Shown: positions 18,956 through 35,498, numbered from the stretch's first letter. The stretch is DNA of 64,000 nucleotides from an uncultured Oscillospiraceae bacterium (GCA_964497495.1 CAZCCZ010000002.1:72134-136133); one strand, 5' to 3'. Made by a program: numbers and translations. Notes: generated by a model not told the origin, from the sequence alone.

Positions 18956-18956
18956 G

Positions 18957-19925: not shown

Positions 19926-19946
19926 CCGGCGCCGACCTCCCTGCCG

Positions 19947-19984
19947 CCGCCGCGGGAAAAGGGCGTTCCCTTCTCCCGCGGCGG
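19947..19984 (-). other. intercistronic GC stem-loop between the SBP gene and livH
   Basis: CCGCCGCGGGA...TCCCGCGGCGG outer stem plus AAGGG/CCCTT inner stem, with one mismatch. Confidence 0.5.
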
Positions 19985-20015
19985 TCGATGCGCTTGTTTT
20001 GCGTCTGCGAGGGGT

Positions 20016-21200
20016 TTATTTAAGGTACTCGGTTACGGCGATGGACTTGATGACTTCCGCCGGGTAAGCCGCCTGGCTGAAGCCCAGCACGTACACCTTC
20101 GCCTGTGTGTTGTCGCCGATGCCGTTGAAGGTCACGTCGGTGGCGACGCCTTCGTACCCGGCGGTGGCGCGTACGGCCGCCACCACCTGCTCGCGGGTGG
20201 GCAGCGCGCCGCCGTTGGCCGCGATGGCGGCCTTAACGGCGTTCAGGGCCACGCTCATGGCGTCGAAACCGTAAGCGGCGTAGCCTTCGGGCGCGCGGCC
20301 GTACGCGGCCTGGTAGGAGGCGGCGAACGCGTTGCCCTTTTCGGTGTTCGCCACGCCCGCCGCGGTGGAGGTGTAGTAGGTGCCGATGACCGCGTCGCCC
20401 GCGATGTTCACCAGTTCCACGGAGTCCATGCCGTCCGGGCCGAGGAAGGTCACGGGAATGCCTTTTTCGGCCAGTTGCTTGATCAGCAGGCCGCCTTCGG
20501 GGTAAATCCCGCCGAAGTAAACGGCCTGCGCGCCGCTGGCGCGGATCATTTCTTCCACGGCGCTGTAGTCGGCCTCGCCCGCGGTGATGCCTTCGTAGCC
20601 CAGCACCGTGCCGCCGATGGCCTCGAAGCGCTTTTTAAACTCGTCGGCCACGCCCTGGCCGTAGGTGGTCTTGTCCTGAAGCACGAACACGCTGGTCAGC
20701 CCCAGGCCGAACAGGAAGTCCGCGCCTGCGGGGCCCTGCGCGTCGTCACGGGCGCAGATACGGTTGACCACCGGCAGCGCGCGGTCGGTCACGGCCGTGG
20801 CTGTGTTGGCGGGGGAGACCATGGCCAACCCACCCTGGTTGTACACTTCCGAGGAGGGGATGGCCACGCCGGAGTTCCAGTGGCCCACCACCGCGAGGAA
20901 GTCCTTATCCTCGATCAGCCGCTGCGCGATGCTCACGCCGACCTTGGGGTCGGCCTGGTCGTCCTGCGGGGCGAACTGCAGGTCGAAGCCCAGAGCCTTG
21001 AACTCTTCCACGCTCTGGCTATACGCCAGCTCGATGCCGTTTTTAATCACTTCGCCCATGGCGGCCTGGCTGCCGGACAGGGGGGTGCAGCTGGCGATTT
21101 TGATCACGGGCAGGGCCGTTTCGGCCGTCGCGGGGACGCTGCATGCCAAGAGGGCGATCACGAGGGTGAACGACACCAGGAAGGAGAGAACTCTTTTCAT
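20016..21200 (-). CDS. LivJ/LivK-like amino-acid-binding protein
   Basis: Start trimmed to ATG 21200 (MKRVLSFLVSFTLVIALLAC signal peptide), with SD AAGGAGG upstream. Confidence 0.85.
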   Translation of the reverse strand: MKRVLSFLVSFTLVIALLACSVPATAETALPVIKIASCTPLSGSQAAMGEVIKNGIELAYSQSVEEFKALGFDLQFAPQDDQADPKVGVSIAQRLIEDKDFLAVVGHWNSGVAIPSSEVYNQGGLAMVSPANTATAVTDRALPVVNRICARDDAQGPAGADFLFGLGLTSVFVLQDKTTYGQGVADEFKKRFEAIGGTVLGYEGITAGEADYSAVEEMIRASGAQAVYFGGIYPEGGLLIKQLAEKGIPVTFLGPDGMDSVELVNIAGDAVIGTYYTSTAAGVANTEKGNAFAASYQAAYGRAPEGYAAYGFDAMSVALNAVKAAIAANGGALPTREQVVAAVRATAGYEGVATDVTFNGIGDNTQAKVYVLGFSQAAYPAEVIKSIAVTEYLK

Positions 21201-21257
21201 GGATGGACGCCTCCTTATACTTTTTCCGAGGCGGGTATGCCCGCGCTCCGGATATTC

Positions 21258-21293
21258 AAAAAAACTTCCCGCGGCCGCGTTAAGCCGGAGAAG
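21258..21293 (-). terminator. leader terminator/attenuator upstream of the liv operon
   Basis: Minus strand: CUUCUCCGGC-8 nt-GCCG(C)GGGAAG followed by U7, 57 nt before the ATG. An alternative GGAAGC/GCUUCU pairing lies upstream. Confidence 0.55.
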
Positions 21294-21438
21294 CCTCTTT
21301 GCTTCCATCTTTATCTTTGATTGCGTCGGGAGGCACGAACGTGGAACGTGCGTTGGAAGGAAGAAGTATCGGATAGGGTGAGAATGAAGGAGCACGGAAA
21401 CGATTATGCAAACCGGACGAGCCCGGTCTGATTAGCCA

Positions 21439-21467: not shown

Positions 21468-21660
21468 TAAGGGCATATCGGCCTTCCGGCGAAAAACGAA
21501 TTTTAAACAGTTTGCATCACGAAGCTGTATGCGATTCATAATTTTCCTGCGGGCCCCGGCCCCGGCAGGCAGGAATCCGCGCCGTCGGGAAGAAAGAAAT
21601 GGAATGCGGCCCCGCGCCGTATCCGGCGGGAGAACCGCCCCGGAAGGAGAGCGTTACGCC

Positions 21661-22308
21661 ATGAAAAACTTCGTCGTCACCATCGCCCGCGGCTTCGGCA
21701 GCGGCGGCAAGCAGATCGGCCTGCAGATCGCGGGAGACCTGGGCATCCGCCTGATGGACAAAGAGCTTTTGGAACTGGCCTCCGTGGAAAGCGGCATCAA
21801 CGAGGAACTGTTTACGCTGGCCAACGAGAAGTTCAACCGCCGGCTCCTGATGCAGGTGCCCGACCGCGAACATTACGGCAACGTGTTGACGCCCGAGAAC
21901 CGGAAGTTCGTATCGGAAATCAACCTGTTCAACTATCAGGTAAAAATCCTACGGATGCTGGCGCAGACGGAATCCTTCATCGTTATGGGCAAGGCCGCCA
22001 ACTTCGTGCTGCGCGACCTGCCAAACGTCGTCAGCGTCAGCGTACAGGCGCCGTTCGAAGCCTGCGTTCATTCCATTATGGAACGCACCGGCATGGATGA
22101 GGCGGAGGCGGGCAAGATGATCCGCCGCACGGACAAATACCGCTCGGATTACCACAGGTATTACACCGGCGAAAACTGGAAAGATCCTGCCGGATACGAC
22201 CTGTGCCTGAACAGCGCCCGCGTGGGGCGCGCGGCGTGCGCCGAGGTCATCAAGCAGTGCGTGAAAAGCAAGCTGGGCGTGCGGCTCCCCGCCAAAGCGA
22301 AAGCGTGA
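21661..22308 (+). CDS. cytidylate kinase-like family protein
   Basis: MKNFVVTIARGFGSGGKQIG N-terminus is typical of the cytidylate-kinase-like (AAA_28-type) family. Start trimmed to ATG 21661. Confidence 0.7.
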   Translation: MKNFVVTIARGFGSGGKQIGLQIAGDLGIRLMDKELLELASVESGINEELFTLANEKFNRRLLMQVPDREHYGNVLTPENRKFVSEINLFNYQVKILRMLAQTESFIVMGKAANFVLRDLPNVVSVSVQAPFEACVHSIMERTGMDEAEAGKMIRRTDKYRSDYHRYYTGENWKDPAGYDLCLNSARVGRAACAEVIKQCVKSKLGVRLPAKAKA

Positions 22309-22392: not shown

Positions 22393-23376
22393 TTACACCT
22401 TCATGCACGAATCGCCGATGATCAGCGAAACGCCGATCACCTGATCTTTCTTGGGGTCCTCCGAAAACAGCGCGTCGAATAGCGCCTGCGACAGGGAGGA
22501 AACGTCCTGCCGGATCGTCGTGAGCCTGGGGTAGGCGTAGCCGGGCATGCAGCCGTCGAAGCCCACGATGGAAAAATCCTGCGGGATGCCGAAACCCCGC
22601 TGGTTGGCGCGCATGCACATGCCCATGGCCACCAGGTCGTTGGCGCAGACCACCGCCGTGGGCGGGTTGCGCAGCGAGCAGAAGTAATCCATCGCCTGCG
22701 CGCCGGTGTTCACGTCCAGCGAGCCTTTATACAGGTAATCCTCCGAGAAATCCAGCCCCTTTTCCGCGACCGTGTCCAGAAACGCCTGGTAGCGCTCCTC
22801 GCAGGAGTGGAAACCCGGCACGTAACCCGCGAAGCCGAGGGTGCGGTGGTTAAGGTTGTACAGGTAATCGGTCAGCAGGTGGATGCCGCGGCTATTGTCG
22901 GAATGGATGCGGCAGTGGCGCATGTCCATGTTCCGGTCCAGACCGATCAGCCGCTGGCTGGTATGCTCGAACGTCGCCGAACTGCGGTTGAACCCTTCCG
23001 TCAGGATGATCCCGCGGGTATGGGCCGCCTCGCAGTAGCGCAGGTATTCGGCCTCCAGCCGGGGGTCGTTCTCCGTGTCGCAGATCAGGAGCGAGCATTT
23101 GTTTTTCAATGCCACCTGGCCCATTTCCTTGATCAGCGCGATGAAATAGGGGTTCTCCATATCGTAAATGAACAGGGCGAAAGCGTTGGACGTGCCTGCG
23201 AACAGGTTTTTCGCGTTGAGGTTCGGCACGTAGTTATATTGCCGTATCACTTCGCTGACCCGCGTGCGAATCTCTTCGGAGGTTTTTTCGGGCGCGTTGA
23301 TGACCCTTGAAACCGTGGCGACGGAGACGCCCGCGATCTGAGCTATTTCCCGGATGCCCACCGTTTTCTTGTTCAT
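22393..23376 (-). CDS. LacI family transcriptional regulator
   Basis: HTH IREIAQIAGVSVATVSRVINAP. Start at ATG 23376 with SD GAGGAGTGG. Divergent from the GRE operon. Confidence 0.9.
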   Translation of the reverse strand: MNKKTVGIREIAQIAGVSVATVSRVINAPEKTSEEIRTRVSEVIRQYNYVPNLNAKNLFAGTSNAFALFIYDMENPYFIALIKEMGQVALKNKCSLLICDTENDPRLEAEYLRYCEAAHTRGIILTEGFNRSSATFEHTSQRLIGLDRNMDMRHCRIHSDNSRGIHLLTDYLYNLNHRTLGFAGYVPGFHSCEERYQAFLDTVAEKGLDFSEDYLYKGSLDVNTGAQAMDYFCSLRNPPTAVVCANDLVAMGMCMRANQRGFGIPQDFSIVGFDGCMPGYAYPRLTTIRQDVSSLSQALFDALFSEDPKKDQVIGVSLIIGDSCMKV

Positions 23377-23524
23377 GGTACCACTCCTCATCGCTATCAT
23401 TGATTATAGAACAGATCGTTTCACAAATCAATACCAATGTATCCGTTATGATGCATTATGAATCATCTTTATCTACGATTTACACAATATATCGCAAGAA
23501 CGACGATAAATTTCAAAAAACATA

Positions 23525-23553
23525 TTGACATATGGCCGAATATATGCCATAAT
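23525..23553 (+). promoter_or_regulatory. GRE operon promoter TTGACA-17-CATAAT
   Basis: TTGACA tatggccgaatatatgc CATAAT. Confidence 0.65.
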
Positions 23554-23557
23554 GCGC

Positions 23558-23573
23558 ATGTAACAAGTTACTT
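23558..23573. promoter_or_regulatory. candidate LacI operator (core GTAACaaGTTAC)
   Basis: Palindromic core 23560-23571, 7 nt after the -10 box. Confidence 0.45.
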
Positions 23574-23644
23574 ACGTTCATAAAAGTCGCCGTTCACACC
23601 GCATTTTACAGTGCCGTGAGAACCCGGCCAAGGGAGAAGATAGC

Positions 23645-26056
23645 ATGAACCTCAGGATTGCCCGCCTGCGCAAAGCGCTCTTTGACCAGAAACCCAAGGT
23701 GTGTTCCGAACGATGCAATATTTTCACGGAGTCCATGAAACGGAATCACGCGAAGCCCGTGGCCCTACGGCGCGCCGAAGCGTACTACGACGTGCTGACG
23801 AACATGACCGTATGGGTCAGGGACGACGAGCTGATCGTCGGCAACCAGGCGAAATGGCCGAAGGCCTCCCCGATTTTCCCGGAATACTCCTGCCAATGGC
23901 TTACGGAGGAGATCGCAGGGAAACCTTATTTCTGGGACGAGCGGCCCGGCGACCGTTTTTACGCGGACGAGGACGTGAAACAGGATATCCTGCGCTGCAT
24001 CGACTACTGGCAGGATAAGACGCTGATCGACTATCTGCGCGCGGCGCTGCCGGAAAGCACGCTGAAAGCCTGGGATTCCGGCGTGATCGACGAGACCTGG
24101 GTGGTCGGCGCGGGGCTGGGCAACGAGATTCCGGATTATAAGCTCGTGCTTCAAAAGGGCCTGAAGGACGTGACGGCCCGGGCGAAGGCCGCACGGGAAG
24201 CGCTGGACCTGAAAGAGCCGGAAGGCGTGAAGAAGGCCTTCTTTCTGGACGGGGTCCTCCGCGGCAACGAGGCGGTCGTGGCGTTTTCCCGCCGGATCGC
24301 GGACGAGTGCGAGCAGCAGGCCGCCGTGTGCTCCGTGGAAACCCGCAAAGAGGAATTGCTGAAGCTTGCGGGCATCTGCCGCCGTGTTCCCTACGAGCCC
24401 GCTCGTACCTTCCATGAGGCGGTGCAGAGCATCTGGCTGATTTTACTGGCCGTGCATCTGGAATCCAACGGGCACGCCATCTCCCTGGGCCGTTTCGACC
24501 AGTACGTGTACCCCTATTATCAGAAAGATTTGAACGAGGGGCGCATTACGCGGGACGAGGCGCTGGAGATCATCGAGTGCTTCTTCATCAAGTGCAACGA
24601 GCTCAACAAGCTCCGCTCCTGGGGAGATTCGGAGTTCTTCCTCGGATACCAGATGTTCATCAATCTGGCGATCTGCGGGCAGGATAAGTTCGGCAACGAC
24701 GTGACCAACGAGATTTCCCACCTGTGCATTCAGGCCTGCTCGGAGCTCCGGCTGGTTACGCCGTCCGTATCCGTGAAATGCTTTGAGAAGACGGACAAGG
24801 CGCTGATGATGGAAGCGCTGGAAGCCGCGGTGAAGCATCAGGGCGGCATGCCCGCCTTCTACAACGACCGCGCGTTCATGGATACGCTCCGTAAAATGGG
24901 CATCGCGGAGGACGACCTGTGCGACTGGTCTCCGGACGGGTGCATCGAAGCCTCCATCCCCGGCAAGTGGGATTTCGCGGCCAAGGGCCCGTGGCTGAAC
25001 GTGGAAAAGGTGCTGGATATCACGCTTCACAACGGCGTGGACACCAAGACCGGGTATCTGTACAAGCCGACCTCCAGGAAGATCGAGGATTGCGCCTCGA
25101 TGGAGGAGATTTTCAAGGAATATACGGATATGCTGGCCTACTTCATGGATATGCAGGTGGTGGTGGAGCATACCAACGACTACGTGCACTGCCTGTACGA
25201 TATCAACCCGTTCCGTTCCTCGCTCATCGAGGATTGCATCGGCCGCGGGCTGGACCTGGTGGAAGGTGGCGCGCTCTACTCGGCGGACGGCGGCCCCACG
25301 GCGGGCTCCATCAGCTCCGGCGACGCGCTGGCGGACATGGAATACGCCGTTTTCACCAAGAAGCTTGTTACATTGAAGGAATTGCTGCACGCGCTGGATA
25401 CGAATTTCGAGGACGGGGCTACCTCGCCCACCGGGCCGGAGCTGCGCGCGGTGCTGCTGAACAAGGCACCGAAATTCGGCAACGACGACGACACGGCGGA
25501 CCGTTGGGTGGTCGCCGTGGAGGAGTTCATCGGCAGCCGGTACCACACCAAATACCACAGCAGTAAATACGGCAAAGGCCCGCTTCCCTGCTGCTTCTCC
25601 TACAGCCAGAGCCCGGTTTCCGGCAACATCGCCTTCGGCCGCAGCGTCGGGGCCACGCCGGACGGCCGCAGAGACGGCATGCCCGTGAACAACGGCGTAT
25701 CCCCCGCCAACGGCGCGGAACGCGAGGGCGCCACGGCCGCCTGCAACAGCGTGGCCAAGCTGCCCACCCAGTGGATTCAAAAAGGCGCCATCTTCAACAT
25801 GCGCCTGGCGAAAAACGCCATCGCCACCCGGGATAAGCGCGAGCGCGTGGTGGATATGATCGGCGTGCTGTTCGACAAGAAGGCCGAGCAGATCCAGTTC
25901 AACGTCGTCGATTCGGACGTGCTTCGGGACGCGATGGCGCACCCGGACGATTATCAGGACCTGATGGTGCGCGTTTCCGGGTACAGCGCGCTGTTCACTT
26001 CCCTGGCCCCGGCCTGCCAGGCGGACGTGATCAACCGCAATGAGCTGGACATCTGA
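23645..26056 (+). CDS. glycyl radical enzyme, PFL2/glycerol-dehydratase-like (eliminase type)
   Basis: 803 aa. C-terminal RVSGYSALF glycyl-radical fingerprint (Gly aa 779). Single active-site Cys in GCIEAS (aa 433) with Glu two residues later. Confidence 0.92.
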   Translation: MNLRIARLRKALFDQKPKVCSERCNIFTESMKRNHAKPVALRRAEAYYDVLTNMTVWVRDDELIVGNQAKWPKASPIFPEYSCQWLTEEIAGKPYFWDERPGDRFYADEDVKQDILRCIDYWQDKTLIDYLRAALPESTLKAWDSGVIDETWVVGAGLGNEIPDYKLVLQKGLKDVTARAKAAREALDLKEPEGVKKAFFLDGVLRGNEAVVAFSRRIADECEQQAAVCSVETRKEELLKLAGICRRVPYEPARTFHEAVQSIWLILLAVHLESNGHAISLGRFDQYVYPYYQKDLNEGRITRDEALEIIECFFIKCNELNKLRSWGDSEFFLGYQMFINLAICGQDKFGNDVTNEISHLCIQACSELRLVTPSVSVKCFEKTDKALMMEALEAAVKHQGGMPAFYNDRAFMDTLRKMGIAEDDLCDWSPDGCIEASIPGKWDFAAKGPWLNVEKVLDITLHNGVDTKTGYLYKPTSRKIEDCASMEEIFKEYTDMLAYFMDMQVVVEHTNDYVHCLYDINPFRSSLIEDCIGRGLDLVEGGALYSADGGPTAGSISSGDALADMEYAVFTKKLVTLKELLHALDTNFEDGATSPTGPELRAVLLNKAPKFGNDDDTADRWVVAVEEFIGSRYHTKYHSSKYGKGPLPCCFSYSQSPVSGNIAFGRSVGATPDGRRDGMPVNNGVSPANGAEREGATAACNSVAKLPTQWIQKGAIFNMRLAKNAIATRDKRERVVDMIGVLFDKKAEQIQFNVVDSDVLRDAMAHPDDYQDLMVRVSGYSALFTSLAPACQADVINRNELDI

Positions 26057-26966
26057 CCCCCGCGCCGGGCTGGTGTTTAACGTCGAGCGGTTCGCCATCG
26101 AGGACGGAAACGGCATCCGCACCGTCGTGTTTTTAAAAGGCTGCGGCATGCGGTGCGCCTGGTGCGCCAACCCGGAATCCCAGTCCCCCCGGCGGGAGAT
26201 TCTGCTGAACCCGAACCTGTGCGTGGGATGCGGTCGATGTTTGGCCGTTTGCCCGCGGGGGCACATCCGGCGGCTGGAGGGCATGGGTTACGTCACCACG
26301 GATAACGACTGCGATTCCTGCGAGCTTTGCGTGGACGGGTGTTACGCGGGCGCGCGCAAGCTCATGGGAACAAGTTACACGCCGGAAGCGCTTTGCGAAA
26401 CGCTGCTGCGGGACAAACCCTATTTCGACCGTTCCGGCGGGGGCGTAACCTTCAGCGGCGGCGAGCCCCTGTTGCAGGTCGATTTCGTAGAGGCGTGCGC
26501 CGGGCTCCTTCGGCGGGAGAACGTGCCCGTGTTGGTGGAAACCTGCGGCTACGCGCCCCGGGTTGCGGTGGAGCGCTGCGCGGCGCTGGCCTGCGATATT
26601 TATTACGACGTCAAGCATATGGACGACGCCGAGCACCGGCGGCTGACGGGGCAGGGCAACGGGCTGATCCTCGATAACCTGCGCTGGCTGTCCGGGCACT
26701 TCGGGGGCGGCCTGTCCGTGCGGTACCCCTTCGTGCCGGGCTGCAACGACGGCGAAGCCGACGTACGCGCGTTCCTCTCGTTCTGCGCGTCCCTGCCGGG
26801 GCTTAAGGACGTATGGTTCCTGCCTTATCACCGGCTGGGCAACCTGAAATATACGGGACTGGGGCGCGAATACCCGATGGGGGAACGCGAATCCCTGAAA
26901 AGCAAAGATCTGGATTTCCTGAAAGCGTATGCGGACGAATACGGGCTGACCGTCCGCATCGGATAA
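26040..26966 (+). CDS. glycyl-radical enzyme activating protein (radical SAM)
   Basis: CGMRCAWC (CxxxCxxC) plus two ferredoxin-like motifs, CVGCGRCLAVCP and CDSCELCVDGC. Overlaps the GRE 3' end by 17 nt. Confidence 0.92.
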   Translation: MSWTSDPRAGLVFNVERFAIEDGNGIRTVVFLKGCGMRCAWCANPESQSPRREILLNPNLCVGCGRCLAVCPRGHIRRLEGMGYVTTDNDCDSCELCVDGCYAGARKLMGTSYTPEALCETLLRDKPYFDRSGGGVTFSGGEPLLQVDFVEACAGLLRRENVPVLVETCGYAPRVAVERCAALACDIYYDVKHMDDAEHRRLTGQGNGLILDNLRWLSGHFGGGLSVRYPFVPGCNDGEADVRAFLSFCASLPGLKDVWFLPYHRLGNLKYTGLGREYPMGERESLKSKDLDFLKAYADEYGLTVRIG

Positions 26967-26989
26967 ACGACGTACGGGAGCGATCGACC

Positions 26990-28399
26990 GTGAAACACAT
27001 GCTGGGGCTGGACTGCGGCAACTCCTCGTTCCGCATCTTTCTGGGAGCGTTCGACGGGGAAGCCGTTCACGTGGAGAGGATCGACCAGCAGCCGAATTTT
27101 ACCGTCAAAATCGGGGAATACGAATACTGGGACATCCTCAATCTCTTCGAAGGCTTCAAGCGGGCGCTCCGTGCCGCCGCAACGCGGGAGCGCATCGACT
27201 CCATCGGCGTTTGCACCTGGGGCGTCGACTTCGCCCTGTTCACCCGGGAGGGCGATATGCTGGGCAACCCGCTCTCTTACCGCAACACGCTCGGCGCCGA
27301 AACGCTTCAAAAGCTGGACGGGGCGCAGCGGGAAAGGCTTTTCGGGCTGACCGGCATCCTGTGCGACAAGATCAATTCCGTTTACATGCTCGGCGGCATC
27401 CGGGAACGGATGCCCTCCCTGTACGCCGCCGCCGACAGGCTGCTGATGGTGCCGGACATCCTGAATTACCTGCTCACGGGCGTGATGCAAAACGAGCCCA
27501 GCGAACTGAGCACCACGCAGCTCATGGACGCTCGCGCCAGGCGGATCAGCCCGGAAGCCTGCTCGTTTTTCGGCCTGCCCCCCTCGCTGTTCTGCGACGT
27601 CGGCCGCCACGGACGGCGCATCGGCTTCCTGCGGGAAAGTATCCGCGAGGAGCTGGGCATCGGCTACGATATCCCCGTGATCTGCGTACCCTCCCACGAC
27701 ACGGCCTGCGCCGTGCTGGCCGTGCCCGCGGGGGAACCCGACTTCGCGTTCGTCAGTTCCGGCACGTGGTCGCTGATCGGCACCGAGCTTGCGCAGCCGG
27801 TGGTGACCCGCGCGGCGATGGACGCGGCGCTGACCAACGAGGTGGGTGCGTTCGACCGCATCACGCTGCTGAAGAACAACGCGGGCATGTTCCTGATGCA
27901 GCGCATCCGCGCGGAGCTCGAAGCGGAGCGCGGCGCGAAAGCAAGCTGGGAGGAACTGACCGGTATGGCCGAGGGAGCGCGGGAGTGGGCGCTTTTCAAC
28001 GTGAACGATCCGCGCTTCTTCAACCCCCCCTCCATGAGCGGCGCCATCCGGGCGGCGCTTTCGGAAAGCGGAAGCCTCGCGGGCGAGGCGGACTGGGGCG
28101 TCGTCATCCGCTCCGTGTACGAGTCTCTGGCGGAAAGCTACGCAGTGTGTGTGAACGATCTGGAAACCGTAACGGGCAGACGGTTCGAGAAGCTTTACAT
28201 CGTTGGCGGCGGCGCCCGCAACGATCTGCTCAACCGGCTTTCCGCCGCCCACACGAAGCGCACCGTCGTCACCTGCGAGGGCGAAAGTACCGTTTTAGGC
28301 AACATCGCCGCCCAGATCGCCTATTTCCGGGAGGGAATTACCCCGGAGGAGCTTCGTAGTATAATAAACCGTTCCGCCCGCACCAGAGTTTACGGGTAA
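26990..28399 (+). CDS. FGGY-family sugar kinase, rhamnulokinase-like
   Basis: LGLDCGNSSFR, DSIGVCTWGVDF, VPSHDTACAV, SSGTWSLIG, NDPRFFNP and YIVGGGARN blocks parallel RhaB. GTG 26990 is preferred (GGGAG SD); ATG 26999 is the alternative. Confidence 0.85.
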   Translation: MKHMLGLDCGNSSFRIFLGAFDGEAVHVERIDQQPNFTVKIGEYEYWDILNLFEGFKRALRAAATRERIDSIGVCTWGVDFALFTREGDMLGNPLSYRNTLGAETLQKLDGAQRERLFGLTGILCDKINSVYMLGGIRERMPSLYAAADRLLMVPDILNYLLTGVMQNEPSELSTTQLMDARARRISPEACSFFGLPPSLFCDVGRHGRRIGFLRESIREELGIGYDIPVICVPSHDTACAVLAVPAGEPDFAFVSSGTWSLIGTELAQPVVTRAAMDAALTNEVGAFDRITLLKNNAGMFLMQRIRAELEAERGAKASWEELTGMAEGAREWALFNVNDPRFFNPPSMSGAIRAALSESGSLAGEADWGVVIRSVYESLAESYAVCVNDLETVTGRRFEKLYIVGGGARNDLLNRLSAAHTKRTVVTCEGESTVLGNIAAQIAYFREGITPEELRSIINRSARTRVYG

Positions 28400-28444
28400 C
28401 GACCGGAACGGGAGATTCGCAGTGTTTGTGAGGGGGTTCTGTCT

Positions 28445-29950
28445 GTGGAGTACATCCTGGAAATGACGGGAATCTGCAAGAGCTTCTTCGGCGTCGAAGT
28501 CCTGCACGAGGCGAAGCTGCAGGTCCGGCCCGGCGAGGTGCACGTGCTGCTGGGTGAAAACGGCGCGGGTAAATCGACGCTGATCAAGATTCTCTCCGGC
28601 GCGTACAGGCGCGAGGTGGGGGAGATTATTCTGGACGGAAAGCCGCTGACCATCGCTTCCCCCAAAGAGGCGCTGGACGCGGGCATCAGCGTGATCTATC
28701 AGGAGTTCAACCTCGTACCCTACCTTTCCGTCTACGAAAACATCCATATCGGCAAGGAAAGGCTGAAAAACGGCCTGCTGGACAAGACCGCCGAGATCGA
28801 GGAGACCCGCGGGCTGCTTGAGAGGATCGGGCTGAACGTGGACCCCAGAACGCGCATTTGCGACCTGAGCGTGGCCCAGTGCCAGATGGTGGAGATTTGC
28901 AAGGCGCTTTCCAACAAGAGCAAGGTGCTCGTGCTGGACGAGCCGACCAGCGCCATTACCGCCAACGAGACGAAGATTCTTTTCGACATCGTGCGCAAAC
29001 TGAAAGCCGAGGGGCTGGGTATTATCTACATCAGCCACCGCTTAAGCGAACTGTTCGAAATCGGCGACCGGGTCACCATCATGCGGGACGGCTGCTATAT
29101 CAAGACCTGCGAGCTCAAGGACACCAACGAGCGCGAGTTGCCCAAGATGATGGTGGGCCGGGACGTGAATTTCGACCGGATCTGCAACGACGGCCTCTGC
29201 CCCAACGAAGTGGCGCTGGATGTGCGCGGCATCTGCTGCCGCGACCGGGTTAAAAACGTGAGCTTCAAACTCCGCAAGGGGGAGATATTGGGCGTAAGCG
29301 GGCTGGTGGGCGCGGGTCGCACGGAGCTGGCCAAATGCATCATCGGCGCGTACCGGCATACGGGCGAGGTGTTCATCAACGGCAAGCCGCTTAAGGGCAG
29401 CGTTTCGGAAGCCATCCGCAACGGCGTGGTGTACCTGAGCGAAGACCGCAAGAACGAAGGACTTGTGCTGATCCACTCGATCCGGGACAACATCGCTTTG
29501 CCCAACCTGCGCCAGTTCGGAAAGACGTTCATCAACCGCCGGACGGTTCTGGAAAAGAGCGACGAGTACATGCGCAAGCTGAGCGTCAAGGCGCCCAACG
29601 ACCAGCTGGAGGTCAGAAACCTTTCAGGCGGCAACCAGCAGAAGGTCGTCATCGCGAAATGGCTGCTCAACCGGCCGCAGGTCTATATTTTCGACGAACC
29701 CACCCGCGGCATCGACGTGGGGGCGCGGGATGAAATTTACCATATCATGGAGGACCTGACCCGCGCGGGGGCTTCCATCCTGATGATTTCGTCCGACATG
29801 GTGGAAGTCATGAAGATGTGCGACCGGATCGCGGTTATGTGCAACGGCGAGATGCCCGTGATTCTGGATAACGACGGCACCGTAACCGAGGAAAAAATCC
29901 TATCTTACACGCTGAACGGAGGAAACGACTATGAAGCAGCAATCGGTTGA
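28445..29950 (+). CDS. CUT2 monosaccharide ABC transporter ATP-binding protein
   Basis: GENGAGKST, LSVAQCQMVEICKAL and LSGGNQQKVVIAKWL. Confidence 0.9.
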   Translation: MEYILEMTGICKSFFGVEVLHEAKLQVRPGEVHVLLGENGAGKSTLIKILSGAYRREVGEIILDGKPLTIASPKEALDAGISVIYQEFNLVPYLSVYENIHIGKERLKNGLLDKTAEIEETRGLLERIGLNVDPRTRICDLSVAQCQMVEICKALSNKSKVLVLDEPTSAITANETKILFDIVRKLKAEGLGIIYISHRLSELFEIGDRVTIMRDGCYIKTCELKDTNERELPKMMVGRDVNFDRICNDGLCPNEVALDVRGICCRDRVKNVSFKLRKGEILGVSGLVGAGRTELAKCIIGAYRHTGEVFINGKPLKGSVSEAIRNGVVYLSEDRKNEGLVLIHSIRDNIALPNLRQFGKTFINRRTVLEKSDEYMRKLSVKAPNDQLEVRNLSGGNQQKVVIAKWLLNRPQVYIFDEPTRGIDVGARDEIYHIMEDLTRAGASILMISSDMVEVMKMCDRIAVMCNGEMPVILDNDGTVTEEKILSYTLNGGNDYEAAIG

Positions 29951-30896
29951 AAAGCGCAGGGTCAGCATATCAGACCTTACGCTTTACATCGGCGCGGTCG
30001 CAATTTTCCTGGTGCTTACGGTCGCCTGCAACCTGGCCGGTAAAAACTTTCTGACGCTGGTCAACATCCAGAACATCATTAAGCAGTCCAGCGTCATCGC
30101 GGTTACGGCCATCGGCGCGTCGCTTGTGATCCTGACCGGCGGCATCGACCTGAGCGTGGGCTCGGTGGTGGCCTTCGTGGGTATCGCCTGCGGCATGATG
30201 CTGAAAAGCGGCGTGGCCATTCCGGTGGTCGTGTGCCTGGCGCTGCTGATCGGCGCGTCGTTCGGCCTGGTCAGCGGCGTGCTCATCAGCTTTGGCAAGG
30301 TGCCCGCCTTCATCACCACGCTGGGCATGATGAACGTCGGGCGCGGGCTGGCGCTGCTGATTAACGGCGGCAAGCCCATCTCCGGCCTTTCCAGCGACCT
30401 GAAGATGCTGATGAATTTTAAGATCGCCGGCATCCCGATTTCCATCTTCTACGTGTTCGTGCTGTACGCGCTGGTGATCGTCATGATGAGCTACACCCGT
30501 TTCGGCCGGCATATCTACGCCCTGGGCGGCAACGCGGCCGCGGCCAAGCTGTCCGGCGTCAATATCCGCAGGACCGAGCTTTCCTGCTACGTGCTGGCGG
30601 GCATCCTCTCCGCCGTGGGCGGCATCATGCTGCTGTCCCGCCTCTCCTACGCCGACCCCAACGCCGGTTCCGGCTACGAAATGAACGCCATCGCCAGTGC
30701 GGTTATCGGCGGCATATCGCTCTCCGGCGGCCGAGGCAAAATCGGCAACACGCTGGTCGGCGCGCTGATTCTGGGCGCTCTCACCTGCGGCTTGCAAATC
30801 CTCAACATCTCCACCTATTGGCAGACGATCATCGCGGGCGCCGTGATCATCGCCGCCGTGTATGCGGACAAGTCTAAGGAACGCAAGGCCGAGTGA
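29931..30896 (+). CDS. CUT2 ABC transporter permease
   Basis: RbsC-like multi-TM protein. 20-nt overlap with the ATPase gene. Confidence 0.88.
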   Translation: MKQQSVEKRRVSISDLTLYIGAVAIFLVLTVACNLAGKNFLTLVNIQNIIKQSSVIAVTAIGASLVILTGGIDLSVGSVVAFVGIACGMMLKSGVAIPVVVCLALLIGASFGLVSGVLISFGKVPAFITTLGMMNVGRGLALLINGGKPISGLSSDLKMLMNFKIAGIPISIFYVFVLYALVIVMMSYTRFGRHIYALGGNAAAAKLSGVNIRRTELSCYVLAGILSAVGGIMLLSRLSYADPNAGSGYEMNAIASAVIGGISLSGGRGKIGNTLVGALILGALTCGLQILNISTYWQTIIAGAVIIAAVYADKSKERKAE

Positions 30897-30951
30897 CCGG
30901 GTTTTACGAAATTATACCGAGAGGTATAAGAATATGAAGGAGGTTTGTCTC

Positions 30952-31992
30952 ATGAAGAAATGGTTGTCTCTGCTGGTTGCCCTGACGATGGTTTTCTCTT
31001 TTAGCGTAGCCGCCGTCGCGGAAGCCGCCGCCACCCCGAACGAAAGCGCCACGCTGGAAGAAGTCGCCGCCGCCCTGCAACCGGCCGCCGACGGGAACTA
31101 CTCGGACCTCTTCATCGGTTTCGTGGGCATGACGCTGAACAACGAGTTCCACATCGTGCTTGCCAATGCCGCCCAGCAGGAAGCCGGCAAGTACGGCGTG
31201 AAGCTGGAAGTGGAAGCGGGCGCCACGCACGCCAGCGCCGATACGCAGCTGGCCATCGTTGAAAACTACATTTCCCAGGGCGTGGACGGCATCCTGCTGG
31301 TGCCCAGCTCCTCCGAGGGCCTCGTGGCCGCCATCCAGGCCTGCGCCGAGGCGAACATTCCCATCATCAACCTGGACACCAAGCTGACCGACGACGTGCT
31401 GGCCGAAGCCGGCATGGACATTCCCTACTTCGGCACCAACAACTACGAGGGCTCCAAGCTCGCGGGTCAGTGGGTGGTTGAGAACATGCCCCAGGGCGTC
31501 GTGACCGCCATCCTCACCGGCATCGACGGCCAGACCAATGCCGCCGACCGCTACAACGGCTTTATGGACGTCGCCGGCGACCACGTGAAGCTGGTGGCCA
31601 CGCAGACCGCCAACTGGGAAGTGGATCAGGGCTACACCGCCGCGCAGAACATCATCCAGGCCAACCCGGACCTGCAGCTGATCGTCTGCGGCAACGACAA
31701 CATGGGCATCGGCGCGCTGAGCGCGGTACAGGAAGCGGGCCTACAGGACCAGATCTCCATCATCGGCTTCGACGCCGTGAGCCAGGCGCTGCAGTACGTG
31801 AAGTCCGGCGATTTCACCGCGACCGTCGCGCAGTATCCCGCCAAGATGGGCGTGCTGGGCGTGGACGCCATGATCCAGCTCCTGACCGGCCATAAGGACA
31901 TCGTGCCGCTGTCCACCGACACCGGCTGCGAACTCGTGACCTCCGCCAACGTGGATTCCTTCATCGAGTACGTCGCCCAGTTTACCAAGTAA
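30952..31992 (+). CDS. CUT2 sugar-binding protein
   Basis: ATG 30952 follows SD GAAGGAGG. Signal peptide MKKWLSLLVALTMVFSFSVAAVA. Confidence 0.85.
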   Translation: MKKWLSLLVALTMVFSFSVAAVAEAAATPNESATLEEVAAALQPAADGNYSDLFIGFVGMTLNNEFHIVLANAAQQEAGKYGVKLEVEAGATHASADTQLAIVENYISQGVDGILLVPSSSEGLVAAIQACAEANIPIINLDTKLTDDVLAEAGMDIPYFGTNNYEGSKLAGQWVVENMPQGVVTAILTGIDGQTNAADRYNGFMDVAGDHVKLVATQTANWEVDQGYTAAQNIIQANPDLQLIVCGNDNMGIGALSAVQEAGLQDQISIIGFDAVSQALQYVKSGDFTATVAQYPAKMGVLGVDAMIQLLTGHKDIVPLSTDTGCELVTSANVDSFIEYVAQFTK

Positions 31993-32016
31993 CCCGAACG
32001 AACGGTCTGTTACCGC

Positions 32017-32045
32017 GCCCGCCGCGCTATCAACGCGCGGCGGGC
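32017..32045 (+). other. 11-bp GC stem-loop after the SBP gene
   Basis: GCCCGCCGCGC-tatcaac-GCGCGGCGGGC. Confidence 0.5.
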
Positions 32046-32074
32046 CTTCTCCAACGACGAGGGGGCTGACACGA

Positions 32075-32734
32075 ATGAACTTCAAGAAACTGATTATCGA
32101 ATCCGGCGTGAAAATGATCGACGGGGGATATACCGTGGAAACCTGGGGCAACATCAGTTGCCGCGACCCTGAAACCGGTAAAATCTACATCACGCCCAGC
32201 GGCATGGATTACTCCCTGCTGACCGAGGACGACGTGGTGGTGGTGGATATCGACGGCAACGTGACCGAGGGCAAGCGCCGCCCCAGCATCGAAACCGGCC
32301 TGCACTGCGGCGTTTACCGCGCGCGGGCGGACGTGAACGCCGTGATCCACACGCACCCCATCTACTCCACCGTGTTCTCCTGCATGGGTGAGGACATCCC
32401 CATGCTGATCGACGAGGCCGCCCAATGCTTCGGCGACGTATGCCGCGTGGCGGAATACGCGCTGCCCGGCTCCAGGGAACTGGCCGACAACTGCGTGAAA
32501 ACGCTCGGCGAAACCTCCAACTGCTGCCTGCTGAAAAGTCACGGCGCCGTTTGCCTGGGCGCTGACATGAAATGCGCGTTCCGCGCCGTGAAGGTGCTGG
32601 AGGTCACCGCGCAGATTTACCAGCTCATCCGCGCGTGCGGCGGCTCCTACCAGCCGATTTCCAAAGAAAATATCGAAAAGATGCAATACTTCGTGGCGCA
32701 CCTCTACGGCCAGGGCTGCTCCTGCGACTGCTGA
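32075..32734 (+). CDS. class II aldolase/adducin-family protein (FucA/RhaD-like)
   Basis: TWGNIS, ITPSG and AVIHTHP His-metal motifs. Confidence 0.85.
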   Translation: MNFKKLIIESGVKMIDGGYTVETWGNISCRDPETGKIYITPSGMDYSLLTEDDVVVVDIDGNVTEGKRRPSIETGLHCGVYRARADVNAVIHTHPIYSTVFSCMGEDIPMLIDEAAQCFGDVCRVAEYALPGSRELADNCVKTLGETSNCCLLKSHGAVCLGADMKCAFRAVKVLEVTAQIYQLIRACGGSYQPISKENIEKMQYFVAHLYGQGCSCDC

Positions 32735-32747
32735 CGCGCGACGTGGC

Positions 32748-32785
32748 GCCGGGCCCCCGCCCTCCCCGGAGGACGGGGGCCCGGC
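32748..32785 (+). terminator. terminator-like 12-bp GC hairpin ending the GRE-locus operon
   Basis: GCCGGGCCCCCG-14 nt-CGGGGGCCCGGC followed by TTGTT. Confidence 0.55.
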
Positions 32786-32828
32786 TTGTTCAGCCGTTCG
32801 CTTTCCACAGGGGGAACGGCCCCATGCC

Positions 32829-32857
32829 TTGACAAGCGCAACCCGTTCCTTTACAAT
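32829..32857 (+). promoter_or_regulatory. native tRNA-Arg promoter TTGACA-17-TACAAT, now orphaned
   Basis: TTGACA agcgcaacccgttcctt TACAAT, 17 nt before the truncated tRNA 5' half. Lies in GC-rich host-like DNA. Confidence 0.7.
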
Positions 32858-32869
32858 GGCTTTCGGCTT

Positions 32870-32916
32870 CCCTTGCGCCTATAGCTCAGCAGGATAGAGC
32901 GTCCGCCTCCTAAGCG
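32870..32916 (+). repeat. left direct repeat (attL-like), 47 nt
   Basis: Identical to 38163-38209 except C32879 versus T38172. Confidence 0.9.
32875..32916 (+). pseudogene. displaced 5' half of tRNA-Arg(CCT), positions 1 to the anticodon loop
   Basis: GCGCCTATAGCTCAGCAGGATAGAGCGTCCGCCTCCTAAGCG, after which the sequence diverges into AT-rich DNA. No T-arm or 3' acceptor strand. Confidence 0.85.
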
Positions 32917-33192
32917 TAGAATGGGCGCGATCATAACTGATTAGCACATTATTAAACAGAGAAGAATGGCGTATAAATATTCAGCCTGTGAGTTCCGTCA
33001 AGGAGCCTTTTTTATATTGCTGAACATGAATTTTTTGGTGACCATATAAGGCTAGCCCTCATCCTTACCAAGGGGCATTAAAAAGCATATTGGGCAGTAA
33101 AAAGACGAACTTTCGATGGACAGCACTGGCTATTAAAAATGGCGTTTCTACATTGTGTCTGTAGTACTCCACTCATTGTCTAATCTACAAAA

Positions 33193-34335
33193 TCACCTTG
33201 TTGAGCGTCCGCCTCCTTCTCCGGCTTCCTGTTGACAATAAGAATTGTTGTAATAATTTTCAAGCGTACTCCATGTGCGATTAATTTCAGCATTAAATAA
33301 ATCTGTATGATATTCTATAAAAGCAGAATCTTTGACACATGGATCAATGATATTAAGTTCTTTTCTATGTCCTGATGAACATGCACTCTTGATCCTTGTT
33401 GATAGTTCACTATCATTATTCATAAAAGTTTTTCCTACGAGCCAAATCTCTGAGGATAAAGAAAGCGAATCATTAAAGGCAGTGAGGTGAGTAGTCAGAA
33501 TACTGCTTTCATAATATATCTCTTCTTTATCCTTCACTGGATATATTAATATATGAGGAGAGACCCCATCATTATCTGGGCTTGGCAACCCATCTACCAG
33601 TAGATTATAATATACATCCTGTCTATACATGTTATAAAACCAATTCAATGAGCCATGAAGTTTGATCAATCTTACAGGATCTGAGTGTGGGTATTTTTTT
33701 GCAATATAAACCCCCTTGAATCCTAAATTCGAAAATGAACGCTCATCAAGTTTTTCCATGTTGAGTAATGTATAGTCTGCTATTTCATCATAATTAAAGG
33801 AAATGACTGTGTCTTCCTGTGAGAGCATTTGAAATAGTTTTTCATGGTATATGCAATGTCGGTTGTGCCCCAACGCTAAGAACATATAATTATAAAAATC
33901 ATCTGCAAACAAAGTTTGGAAATTCGTGTAAGCGATATATTGCTCAGCTAATTCTCTGTGCGTTTGAGCATATGTCAATATATTGTGGACAATGGGATAG
34001 TATGAAATATCAGTTGTAAAATTATATATATATTGGGGCATACTTAATATCATCTTTAAGGTTTCTTCTTGAAAAAAAACATACTTTGGTTCTATTTTAA
34101 CTCTTGCTTTTTCTATATAAAATAATGCAGTACAATACATTTCAAAGTCATTATCAACACCTGAATACACATATAACTCATTAAAATCCTTAATTAGTTG
34201 TTCATCTCTTTCTTGATAGTGGTTGTGTGTATTTGGCACCACTTTATGTAAGTCCTTGAGCAATGGAATTTTCATGGAGTTTGCACAACTACAACCGTAT
34301 GACGCACCAGCACCGAGTATTATAAGCTTTGACAT
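33193..34335 (-). CDS. stand-alone SIR2-like (SIR2_2/ThsA-type) domain protein, candidate NADase
   Basis: Ordered blocks IILGAGAS (aa 5-12), ISFNYDEIADY (N181-Y-D), IKLHGSLNW (H227-G) and IWLVGKTFMNNDSE (aa 297-310). SD AGAGGGA. Low-GC island cargo. Confidence 0.65.
   Translation of the reverse strand: MSKLIILGAGASYGCSCANSMKIPLLKDLHKVVPNTHNHYQERDEQLIKDFNELYVYSGVDNDFEMYCTALFYIEKARVKIEPKYVFFQEETLKMILSMPQYIYNFTTDISYYPIVHNILTYAQTHRELAEQYIAYTNFQTLFADDFYNYMFLALGHNRHCIYHEKLFQMLSQEDTVISFNYDEIADYTLLNMEKLDERSFSNLGFKGVYIAKKYPHSDPVRLIKLHGSLNWFYNMYRQDVYYNLLVDGLPSPDNDGVSPHILIYPVKDKEEIYYESSILTTHLTAFNDSLSLSSEIWLVGKTFMNNDSELSTRIKSACSSGHRKELNIIDPCVKDSAFIEYHTDLFNAEINRTWSTLENYYNNSYCQQEAGEGGGRSTR
33203..33217 (+). 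repeat. third att-like fragment (15-nt exact match to the tRNA core)
   Basis: GAGCGTCCGCCTCCT equals the D-stem 3' strand through the anticodon loop of the tRNA. Lies inside the last codons of the SIR2-like ORF. Confidence 0.7.
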
Positions 34336-34511
34336 AAGTATCCCTCTTTCTATTTTGTCAATTAAGTATATTGTAAGTTTCTGTTGGAAGCAAATGAAAC
34401 ATTATATGTTTGACTTTACCCAAAACGACCGTATTTGATAATTATCCATAAAATTAGGAATAGTGCTGAAAACAAGCAGATTTTAATATCAAAACCCATA
34501 TCATAAACATA

Positions 34512-34540
34512 TTGACATTAAACCCCGTATATGATACAAT
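34512..34540 (+). promoter_or_regulatory. serine recombinase promoter TTGACA-17-TACAAT
   Basis: TTGACA ttaaaccccgtatatga TACAAT. Confidence 0.65.
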
Positions 34541-34549
34541 TCATATATG
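34526..34549. promoter_or_regulatory. res/operator-like inverted repeat overlapping the -10 box
   Basis: CGTATATGA-tacaat-TCATATATG, 8 of 9 positions complementary. Confidence 0.4.
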
Positions 34550-34561
34550 GAGGTGTTCTTT

Positions 34562-35125: not shown

Positions 35126-35469
35126 TAATTGATTTGAAGTTGTTATGGGGGATGTTTACAAAAACCCCATTCAGCTTCTTTTTCATATACCTATATAGCA
35201 CTTTGAGAAAACAAAAATGAAGAAATTTTATTTTGAAGGTAATGTGGCAACGCGCCTATAATCATCCAATAAAACTCACAAGATACATGCAACCTGTGTC
35301 ACATTCTAATGATATATATAGATTGATCGTTTAATATATTGTGCTTCACTCCAACATAAGCATGGTTTGTGGGTAAATACCATAAAAACCCTTTGCTTTC
35401 AACGATTTTGGAATGAATTTGGATGATATTTGGATGTGAATGAAATGCAGAAAAAGTTTTGTTACCCTC

Positions 35470-35498
35470 TTGACAGATGATTTAGCATGTGATATATT
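35470..35498 (+). promoter_or_regulatory. promoter TTGACA-17-(TGa)TATATT upstream of the Rep-like gene
   Basis: TTGACA gatgatttagcatgtga TATATT, with an extended -10 TG. Confidence 0.55.

Follow-up and report, generated by a model that had tools for sequence, protein, structure and literature searches.

A conserved eight-gene cluster associates an isolated glycyl radical enzyme family with the partners of a putative anaerobic sugar pathway

Introduction

In the microbiomes of the gut and the environment, glycyl radical enzymes (GREs) drive several important anaerobic transformations, among them the formation of trimethylamine, H2S, p-cresol, skatole and propionate. To our knowledge, only two sugar-acting GREs are known so far, both described in 2024. 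These enzymes, YbiW and PflD of Escherichia coli, were reportedly identified as C-O lyases by Ma et al. in JACS in 2024. Here, we describe a GRE encoded within an eight-gene cluster of an uncultured Oscillospiraceae bacterium, located at positions 22,393 to 32,734 of a 64-kb window (the whole stretch of DNA analysed, 64,000 nucleotides; GCA_964497495.1, CAZCCZ010000002.1:72134-136133). In this cluster, the GRE and its activating enzyme are found together with a sugar kinase, an ATP-binding cassette (ABC) transporter of the CUT2 family, a class II aldolase-fold enzyme and a LacI-family repressor. Neither the family nor the operon is described in the GRE literature searched, including a 2026 superfamily review. 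GRE-dependent sugar catabolism is itself known, and what is new here is the GRE clade, its altered catalytic set, in which Asn takes the place of a His and Lys that of an Asp, and the architecture of the pathway. Based on sequence comparisons, this GRE would cleave a C-O bond of an imported, unphosphorylated sugar-like substrate, standing in for an isomerase, with the kinase and the aldolase acting after it. We give this reading a probability of about 0.5.

Comparison with described systems

The known system closest in function is the 'anhydroglycolysis' pathway of E. coli, in which YbiW and PflD act as C-O lyases on 1,5-anhydroglucitol-6-phosphate and 1,5-anhydromannitol-6-phosphate (PMC12441222, PMC13450708). 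In that species, fsaA is adjacent to ybiW-ybiY, and ptsA and fsaB are adjacent to frwCB-pflDC-frwD. Like these two enzymes, the window GRE has a Cys-x-Glu (CxE) active site and belongs to a sugar-catabolic operon with an aldolase, which is proposed here to release a triose phosphate. With YbiW it further shares an (R/K)YG(K/R)GP insertion, which is absent from PflD, the GCIE...GKW Cys loop, and a Ser at the position of Tyr640 in glycerol dehydratase (GD). In contrast, sequence identity to the two enzymes is limited to 31-32%, the PflD-type model NF007437 is matched with 420 bits for a cut-off of 1109 bits, an Asn replaces the active-site His, Lys447 is specific to the new family, and the substrate is probably unphosphorylated. 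The genomic surroundings differ as well, with a phosphotransferase system (PTS) for uptake and phosphorylation and a class I fructose-6-phosphate aldolase (FSA) in E. coli; in the window, uptake would rely on a CUT2 ABC transporter and phosphorylation on a RhaB/FucK-like FGGY kinase, and the aldolase has a class II FucA fold.

GD (PDB 1r8w, 496 bits) and propanediol dehydratase (PD; 5i2a, 510 bits) also exhibit the CxE motif and an activase of the type with two extra Fe-S motifs, but they are 35-36% identical to the window GRE, which differs from them at five contact positions and by the presence of the insertion, and whose locus has no microcompartment and no 1,3-propanediol or aldehyde dehydrogenase. 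Pyruvate formate-lyase (PFL) is clearly distinct from the window GRE, which has a single Cys and reaches 150 bits with TIGR01255, for a cut-off of 994 bits. Regarding gene content, the locus resembles the fuc, rha and ara operons (E. coli loci compared) by its FGGY kinase, class II aldolase-fold enzyme, transporter and repressor; unlike these operons, it lacks both a mutarotase and an isomerase (FucI, RhaA or AraA), the place of the latter being taken by a GRE with its activase, and its aldolase differs from the fuc enzyme by an Asp at the position of the catalytic Tyr113. GRE, activase and class II aldolase genes also occur together in GRM5 fucose/rhamnose loci (PMC13450708). Yet shell proteins, aldehyde and alcohol dehydrogenases and phosphotransacylase are all missing from the window locus, and its GRE is not a propanediol dehydratase as judged by its residues.

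A proposed pathway

For a fuc/rha/ara-type architecture from which the isomerase is missing, and in which a GRE-activase pair is present, the most economical interpretation is a GRE that converts the imported compound into the keto-sugar. From the gene identities and motifs, the co-conservation of the cluster, its operator, the isolation of the GRE clade and its relatedness to YbiW, we infer the order of the steps, the C-O cleavage chemistry and the class of substrate as follows. The CUT2 ABC transporter would import a neutral monosaccharide-like compound without phosphorylating it, and the GRE, activated by the adjacent radical S-adenosylmethionine (SAM) enzyme, would act first. In CxE GREs, a thiyl radical abstracts a hydrogen atom, a Glu deprotonates the hydroxyl, and the resulting ketyl radical expels the adjacent substituent (PMC13450708). 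In the window GRE, the thiyl radical of Cys433 would take a hydrogen atom from a carbinol carbon and Glu435 would deprotonate the hydroxyl; the ketyl radical would then drive out an oxygen substituent on the next carbon, which may be a ring ether oxygen, as with YbiW and PflD, or a hydroxyl group, and hydrogen would be returned from Cys433, leaving a new ketone. The RhaB/FucK-like kinase would phosphorylate the keto-sugar, and the class II aldolase would cleave the product to give a triose phosphate together with a small carbonyl compound.

Conservation of the cluster

A scan of one genome per species provided 25 orthologous GRE loci, 62-85% identical to the window GRE and distributed among three phyla, Bacillota, Planctomycetota and Spirochaetota. 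Carriers include Candidatus Limiplasma, Christensenella, Lachnospiraceae, Dorea, Acetivibrio mesophilus and Ruminiclostridium sufflavum in the Bacillota, and Sphaerochaetaceae and Spirochaetia in the Spirochaetota. Candidates for cultured carriers are Lachnospiraceae bacterium 3-2, A. mesophilus, R. sufflavum and Vallitalea spp. tblastn analyses revealed that the eight genes of the window (LacI, GRE, activase, kinase, three CUT2 genes and aldolase) recur in most full-length loci, the exceptions being L016, without the aldolase, and L006 and L021, without a kinase or LacI match. The LacI gene is present and divergently oriented in 20 of the 25 loci. Two loci, L004 and L020, are rearranged in gene order with their content kept, except for the replacement of LacI by a DeoR gene (5309-6175) in L020, from Spirochaetia bacterium MS495-87, where the order is kinase-aldolase-DeoR-ABC-GRE-activase and the LacI box is absent. 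Three further metagenomic homologues of the aldolase (61-65% identity) were each found inside the same eight-gene cluster.

No ninth conserved family emerged from all-against-all clustering of every open reading frame (ORF) in the orthologous loci, and a Pfam survey of 108 flanking ORFs identified no family in more than three, and no conserved isomerase, dehydrogenase or mutarotase. Homologues of microcompartment shell proteins were detected by tblastn with shell-protein query sequences neither in the window nor in 27 related loci, and a microcompartment association was rejected on the basis of these searches. The flank surveys and tblastn searches agree with the first-pass annotation, which had reported from the window alone that shell, aldehyde or alcohol dehydrogenase and isomerase genes were missing. 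It had also presented the genes as a single operon, and their co-conservation is now documented by an eight-gene content found in most full-length loci of three phyla, with nothing else kept in the flanks and a conserved operator. In 20 of 23 loci, the sequence upstream of the operon's first gene contains an operator box, TGTAACAAGTTACA (up to two mismatches); in shuffling experiments, the observed match was reached in none of 200 shuffles at 19 loci and in 2 of 200 at L002. The three loci without the box are the DeoR locus and two Planctomycetota loci in which no LacI gene was found.

The window sequence was detected in bioreactor and biogas DNA metagenomes only. Four metatranscriptomes of the mouse gut cover the orthologue of Lachnospiraceae bacterium 3-2, itself from the mouse gut, and their RNA contigs span the GRE-activase-kinase and the binding-protein-aldolase junctions, consistent with cotranscription, although at low depth and with DNA carry-over being possible. 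With this reservation, transcription of the orthologue in the mouse gut suggests that the substrate is likely dietary or host-derived. As part of the pathway proposed above, and at the same even odds, the operon can be regarded as a LacI-repressed, self-contained catabolic unit for a neutral monosaccharide-like compound.

Placement of the GRE in the superfamily

The GRE matches the Pfam PFL-like and Gly_radical families with 570 and 95 bits, respectively, and reaches no NCBIfam equivalog, missing even the cut-off of the generic PFL2-3 subfamily (625.7 vs 678.2 bits). Scores with the CutC, HypD, HpsG, HpfG, PflD-type and decarboxylase models range from 257 to 463 bits, for cut-offs of 1000-1150 bits; those for the choline trimethylamine-lyase, HypD and HpsG/HpfG equivalogs are 432-463 bits, for cut-offs of 1000-1100 bits. 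The NCBIfam matches to the GRE comprise no IslA/IseG model, and the IslA, IseG and HpsG chains are weak PDB matches (290-314 bits). Its closest solved relatives, namely 5i2a, 1r8w, a CutC, 9rco, 6xs4 and YbiW, all score alike (447-510 bits). Identity is 36% with GD, 35.5% with PD, 32% with YbiW and 31% with PflD, a 31-36% range that includes 9rco, whereas GD and PD, used as a yardstick, share 58%.

The GRE family is sharply delimited. In an exhaustive HMMER scan of 1.84 billion cluster representatives at 50% identity, it is represented by a single sequence (63% identity, 1217 bits), the next protein being at 39% identity and 664 bits, and the ten nearest other clades are likewise without NCBIfam assignment. 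Within the family, 85 alignment columns are invariant yet different from GD, PD, 9rco, YbiW and PflD. A neighbour-joining tree groups exactly the insertion-bearing sequences, including YbiW, with bootstrap values of 15-24%. Taken at the level of sequence, the family can best be seen as an isolated branch within a supergroup that contains YbiW. The suspicion that this GRE lies outside the characterised clades is therefore sustained by the absence of any equivalog match, by the 31-36% identity and by the different residues at contact positions.

Sulfo-sugars and dihydroxypropanesulfonate (DHPS), which had been suggested among the substrates to try, are unlikely, since HpsG/HpfG scores fall far below cut-off and IslA and IseG are weak PDB matches; the neutral-sugar type of the binding protein and the lack of conserved sulfite-handling genes also speak against a sulfo-sugar. 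In a Bacillota metagenome-assembled genome (L026), two tandem GRE-activase pairs were observed (1969-5292 and 8214-11431), with 33-34% identity to the window GRE.

Active site and insertion

The single active-site Cys is found in PDGCIEAS, as Cys433 (nt 24941-24943) followed by Glu435, and GCIE is invariant in 21 orthologues. Across the same 21 sequences, the Cys-loop motif PDGCIEASIPGKWDFAAKGPW is near-invariant, with one Asp-to-Thr and one Ser-to-Ala replacement. The assignment of this protein to the eliminase type rather than to PFL, which has a Cys-Cys pair, is upheld by both translation and alignment. A CxE motif carried by the Cys loop defines the eliminase and isomerase classes of GREs (PMC13450708).

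Compared with the aligned positions of GD and PD, five residues are replaced, all of them invariant in the family: His164 by Asn160, Ser282 by Ala278, Tyr339 by Phe338, Asp447 by Lys447 and Tyr640 by Ser656. Four of these positions in GD (Ser282, Tyr339, Asp447 and Tyr640) are those that we take, from the structure literature, to be its remaining glycerol contacts. His164 of GD has an active-site role as general acid (PMC13450708). A His at this position is near-universal among 60 representatives of GRE clades, and the Asn is a hallmark of the family described here.

The insertion, (R/K)YG(K/R)GP, is 6-7 residues in length and precedes the strand that bears the GD-Tyr640 position. It is common to YbiW and about a dozen uncharacterised clades, including the nearest ones, and absent in GD, PD, PflD and CutC-like enzymes; it can be taken as a mark of relatedness that does not establish function. 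At five positions, YbiW and PflD both have a basic residue where GD and PD have none. Used as a heuristic for a phosphate site, this set gives a weak signal, with only Lys/Arg734 conserved as basic across the family. Arg601 of the window protein is an Arg or a Gln in the family, and the other candidate basic positions are not kept basic. A Cys-Cys pair is also observed at residues 649-650, within PCC[FY]SYSQSP, on the strand leading toward the GD-Tyr640 position: Cys650, as well as Cys24, Cys118 and Cys222, is invariant and family-specific, and Cys649 is a Cys in all but one orthologue.

Kinase, aldolase and binding protein

The best PDB match of the kinase is FucK (4c23), followed by RhaB (2cgj), with 32-33% identity to E. 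coli RhaB and Streptococcus pneumoniae FucK. Its SHDTA motif aligns with His236-Asp237 of RhaB, and both the N- and C-terminal FGGY domains are present. FGGY kinases of the RhaB/FucK subfamily act on keto-sugars, and are not known to act on ring ethers or polyols.

The aldolase retains the Zn ligands His92, His94 and His155, together with Glu73 and most of the phosphate pocket (Ser72 being replaced by Ile). In its invariant IDEAAQ motif, an Asp replaces the catalytic Tyr113 of FucA, and Phe131 and Phe206 are replaced by Pro and Val, respectively. Its best NCBIfam score is 156 bits, for a cut-off of 264 bits, and it exhibits 34-38% identity with S. pneumoniae FucA and 35-42% with Bacillus thuringiensis DrdA, both of which have the canonical residues. 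In all sampled cases, this aldolase subfamily was seen only in the present cluster. In L014 (Clostridiales bacterium COT073), the aldolase slot is filled by a canonical FucA (18542-19222), 75% identical to the characterised fuculose-1-phosphate (Fuc1P) aldolase of S. pneumoniae (FcsA). A PD-(D/E)XK transposase gene (19848-20711) lies directly after it, and this FucA looks like a non-orthologous replacement following rearrangement.

For the binding protein, the best PDB matches are 4yle, 5dte and 2ioy. When compared with ribose-binding protein (RBP), using what we take to be the list of its ligand residues, the protein keeps Asn13, Asp89, Arg141, Asn190, Asp215 and Gln235, has a Trp for Phe164, and differs by Arg90 to Thr, Phe16 to His and Asn64 to Val. 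The Arg90 equivalent is also missing from the four sister-clade binding proteins, and the comparison, made with E. coli RBP and AlsB, does not single out a ligand.

Sister clade and more distant clades

The clade nearest to the new family, designated P0242 and including Christensenella hongkongensis, shares 39% identity and the YbiW-type insertion with it. Its GRE adjoins a CUT2 ABC transporter in all four loci (L039-L042), as in the window. Unlike the window family, it keeps the active-site His, and its partners are a kinase of another subfamily, epimerase-like and aldo-keto reductase genes or a second GRE, and never a class II aldolase, for which all four loci were negative. An FGGY kinase occurs in two of the four loci, that of L041 belonging to the other subfamily (17% identity, GGDQ motif). 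In one locus, a gene resembling ribulose-phosphate 3-epimerase is found with an aldo-keto reductase gene, and in one, a second GRE-activase pair with a Zn alcohol dehydrogenase. In L042, two different GRE-activase pairs flank one transporter. As two of the four loci have no kinase nearby, the GREs that they encode can be argued to act on an unphosphorylated imported compound. No ABC transporter was found at the loci of the more distant clades P0505 and P0482.

Alternative explanations

Two options had been offered by the first-pass annotation, with the GRE acting either on the imported compound itself or on the C3 product of the aldolase. The former is the better supported, by the co-conservation of the cluster, by the sister clade and by the changes at contact positions; the replacement of the presumed small-diol contacts of GD and PD, with a Ser for Tyr640 as in YbiW, was counted in its favour. 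The chemistry given there as an example, in which dehydration would yield a (deoxy)ketose for phosphorylation and cleavage, runs into a regiochemical difficulty, set out below, that the annotation had not taken into account. Several observations weigh against C-O cleavage of an imported sugar-like compound as we propose it. Grouping with YbiW has weak support in the tree (bootstrap 15-24%), and GD His164, which is kept in PD, YbiW and PflD, is an Asn in the window family, so that the mechanism may differ. Known members of the kinase subfamily phosphorylate the C1 hydroxyl of 6-deoxy-L-ketohexoses, which does not match a 1-deoxy-ketose, and the canonical FucA in the aldolase slot of L014 points to cleavage of a ketose-1-phosphate with formation of dihydroxyacetone phosphate (DHAP). 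Such chemistry would yield a ketose with an HOCH2-CO- end only if C1 were a hemiacetal, as it is in an aldose.

These points bear on the substrate. The likeliest class, although a doubtful assignment, would be sugar derivatives that have no free carbonyl, either cyclic ethers or polyols, with 1,5-anhydroalditols as an example. Radical 1,2-elimination deoxygenates the carbon beside the new ketone, so that an anhydroalditol or alditol would yield a 1-deoxy-2-ketose, as with YbiW; the kinase would then have to target a distal hydroxyl, and the aldolase would give hydroxyacetone and glyceraldehyde-3-phosphate. This option has a precedent and an obvious rationale, with a poorer fit to the types of kinase and aldolase, whereas aldose isomerisation fits these types well and has no rationale. 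Somewhat less doubtful, yet still tentative, is the broader idea that the GRE performs on a free, unphosphorylated sugar a type of reaction new to the superfamily, either a radical aldose-ketose isomerisation or the ring-opening or dehydration of an overlooked carbohydrate derivative.

Among the competing orders of events, that of YbiW, in which the kinase acts first, the GRE second on the sugar phosphate, and the aldolase then cleaves the keto-sugar phosphate, survives best and is nonetheless improbable. FGGY kinases of this subfamily are known to act on keto-sugars, and no kinase is found in two of the four sister-clade loci. Lys/Arg734 is kept basic in the family, as in YbiW and PflD, but basic residues are not retained throughout at the other candidate positions. 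Precedent is on the side of this order, since both characterised sugar GREs act on 6-phosphates (PMC12441222, PMC13450708).

Very slightly less probable is a special case of the order in which the GRE acts first, namely a radical aldose-to-ketose isomerase. Here, abstraction of hydrogen from C2 and breakage of the bond between C1 and the ring oxygen, as in YbiW, would lead to a 2-ketose, to be phosphorylated at C1 and cleaved into DHAP and an aldehyde; proposed substrates are ordinary aldopyranoses or aldofuranoses, such as L-fucose, D-arabinose, D-ribose, D-allose or 5-deoxyribose. This is the sole C-O elimination route considered here that gives the HOCH2-CO- ketose expected for a RhaB/FucK-type kinase and a FucA-type aldolase. 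The FucA of L014 fits such a route, the operon lacks exactly the isomerase of the fuc and rha systems, and its transporter and repressor are ribose/allose-like. Against this, the cluster's own aldolase has lost the catalytic Tyr113, no selective reason is evident for preferring an oxygen-sensitive 90-kDa radical enzyme and its activase to cheap metal-dependent isomerases, and no GRE of such a kind is known (PMC13450708).

Equally improbable is the placement of the GRE last in the pathway, on what the aldolase releases in unphosphorylated form, with lactaldehyde (or its hydrate), 1,2-propanediol, glycolaldehyde and glycerol as candidates. The co-location of GRE, activase and class II aldolase in GRM5 fucose/rhamnose loci (PMC13450708) and the top PDB scores, obtained with propanediol and glycerol dehydratases, are in line with this scenario, in which Lys447 could in principle stabilise a gem-diolate or carboxylate. 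Yet among about 25 loci, there is no ketose-making isomerase, lactaldehyde reductase, aldehyde dehydrogenase or shell protein. In addition, all five positions presumed to contact the diol are changed, a larger substrate is suggested by the insertion and by the residues replaced in the pocket, and the sister clade is tied to transporters without an aldolase. Action on a C3 aldolase product, the second of the earlier options, is thus disfavoured by these missing genes and altered contacts.

Finally, a known glycerol or propanediol dehydratase or PFL merely lying beside sugar genes, as the source annotations of homologues ('pyruvate formate-lyase' or 'formate C-acetyltransferase') would have it, is effectively refuted by the single Cys-x-Glu in place of Cys-Cys, scores below all curated cut-offs, 35-36% identity to GD and PD, different contacts and strict synteny across three phyla.

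Biological significance

Under the preferred interpretation, in which the GRE acts on the imported compound ahead of the kinase, this enzyme seems to take over from the customary sugar isomerase, which hints at an anaerobic route for a sugar-like nutrient. The putative pathway is mislabelled by current annotation, which combines a 'pyruvate formate-lyase', a 'fuculose aldolase' and a 'rhamnulokinase'. The family is widely distributed, and the operon is minimal and self-contained, with its own transporter, binding protein, repressor and operator, kinase and aldolase, so that the function of the GRE is directly testable. Solving it would add a carbohydrate-utilisation pathway and open the related sister clades to study. 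With a 1,5-anhydroalditol as substrate, the cluster would represent an ABC/kinase version of 'anhydroglycolysis'. If the radical reaction were new, it would constitute a new anaerobic 'radical' entry to triose metabolism, widespread in gut, digester, termite and marine anaerobes, and would belong to a broader, still unexplored group of sugar GREs linked to ABC transporters.

Gene map and neighbouring genes

Gene coordinates (Table 1) were derived from an ORF listing and translation of the 64-kb window, and families from Pfam and NCBIfam profile searches. The eight genes, the Cys-x-Glu and RVSGY motifs and the three Fe-S motifs of the activase were all recovered where they had been placed, and the consensus promoter and LacI-type operator announced ahead of the GRE were both located, as predictions, by consensus and palindrome scans. 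In the earlier gene map, all families and ORFs stand, while the starts of two genes had to be moved. The kinase ORF is open from 26813, with a homology-supported start at ATG 26993, and the binding-protein ORF is open from 30862, with a likely start at 30952 (MKKWLSLL..., signal peptide), both on the basis of orthologue comparison.

Table 1. Predicted genes, catalytic codons and regulatory sites of the GRE cluster (window positions)
Feature	Position	Strand	Evidence
LacI-family repressor, RbsR-like, divergently transcribed	22393-23400	-	Pfam LacI and Peripla_BP_3
Predicted sigma-70-type promoter TTGACA-17-TGcCATAAT, extended -10 (TG)	23525-23553	+	Consensus scan, 11/12
Predicted LacI-type operator ATGTAACAAGTTACTT, 16-bp near-palindrome directly 3' of the -10 box	23557-23572		Palindrome scan
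GRE, 803 aa, CxE-type active site	23645-26056	+	Pfam PFL-like and Gly_radical
Codons Cys433-Ile434-Glu435 (predicted thiyl-radical Cys and general-base Glu)	24941-24949	+	Translation
Codon Gly779, predicted glycyl radical site in RVSGYSALF	25979-25981	+	Translation, alignment
GRE activating enzyme, radical SAM	26040-26966	+	TIGR02494, 289 bits (cut-off 174)
FGGY kinase, RhaB / S. pneumoniae FucK subfamily	26993-28399	+	TIGR02627 rhamnulokinase, 313 bits (cut-off 528)
CUT2 ABC transporter ATPase, two ABC domains	28445-29950	+	Pfam ABC_tran (x2)
CUT2 ABC transporter permease	29931-30896	+	Pfam BPD_transp_2; RbsC-like, 266 bits, under cut-off
Solute-binding protein, Peripla_BP_4, ribose/allose-binding-protein-like	30952-31992	+	Pfam
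Class II (Zn) aldolase-fold enzyme, cluster-specific subfamily, IDEAAQ motif	32075-32734	+	Pfam Aldolase_II
Predicted terminator-like hairpin, operon end	32782-32796	+	Pattern scan

Intergenic gaps within the operon range from -20 to +82 nt, and the ORF of the activase overlaps the 3' end of the GRE gene by 17 nt. As seen by translation, the activase exhibits CGMRCAWC (CX3CX2C) and two ferredoxin-like CX2CX2CX3C motifs, CVGCGRCLAVC and CDSCELCVDGC. The CUT2 transporter set is complete, with a fused two-domain ATPase, a BPD_transp_2 permease and a Peripla_BP_4 binding protein, none of which reaches an equivalog cut-off; the ATPase resembles XylG, AraG and RbsA, each under its NCBIfam cut-off. 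The top NCBIfam match of the LacI protein is RbsR (176 bits, under its cut-off). No riboswitch or other RNA element was found in the operon leader (5' untranslated region) at Rfam gathering thresholds.

Upstream, positions 17654-21395 (minus strand) encode an ABC transporter of the branched-chain-amino-acid type, composed of two BPD_transp_2 permeases and a Peripla_BP_6 binding protein, followed by a cytidylate-kinase-like gene (21529-22308). Neither is conserved alongside the GRE cluster.

Directly 3' of the operon, a 5.3-kb island of low GC content (0.36-0.48 vs ca. 0.61; window 32861-38244) is inserted in a tRNA-Arg(CCT) gene. It is bounded by a 56-nt direct repeat (32861-32916 and 38154-38209) covering the 5' part of the tRNA, of which an intact copy is found at 38168-38244 and a remnant at 32875-32929; a promoter-like site at 32829-32857 probably served the tRNA gene originally. 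The island encodes a serine recombinase/invertase (34547-35125) and a tyrosine integrase (36691-37980). Its cargo comprises a 288-aa protein without matches (35598-36464, plus strand) and a 380-aa protein (33193-34335, minus strand) with weak PADLOC matches to SIR2 (best E = 9e-11) and no match in either Pfam or PHROGs, the gene of which may, from these matches, contribute to anti-phage defence.

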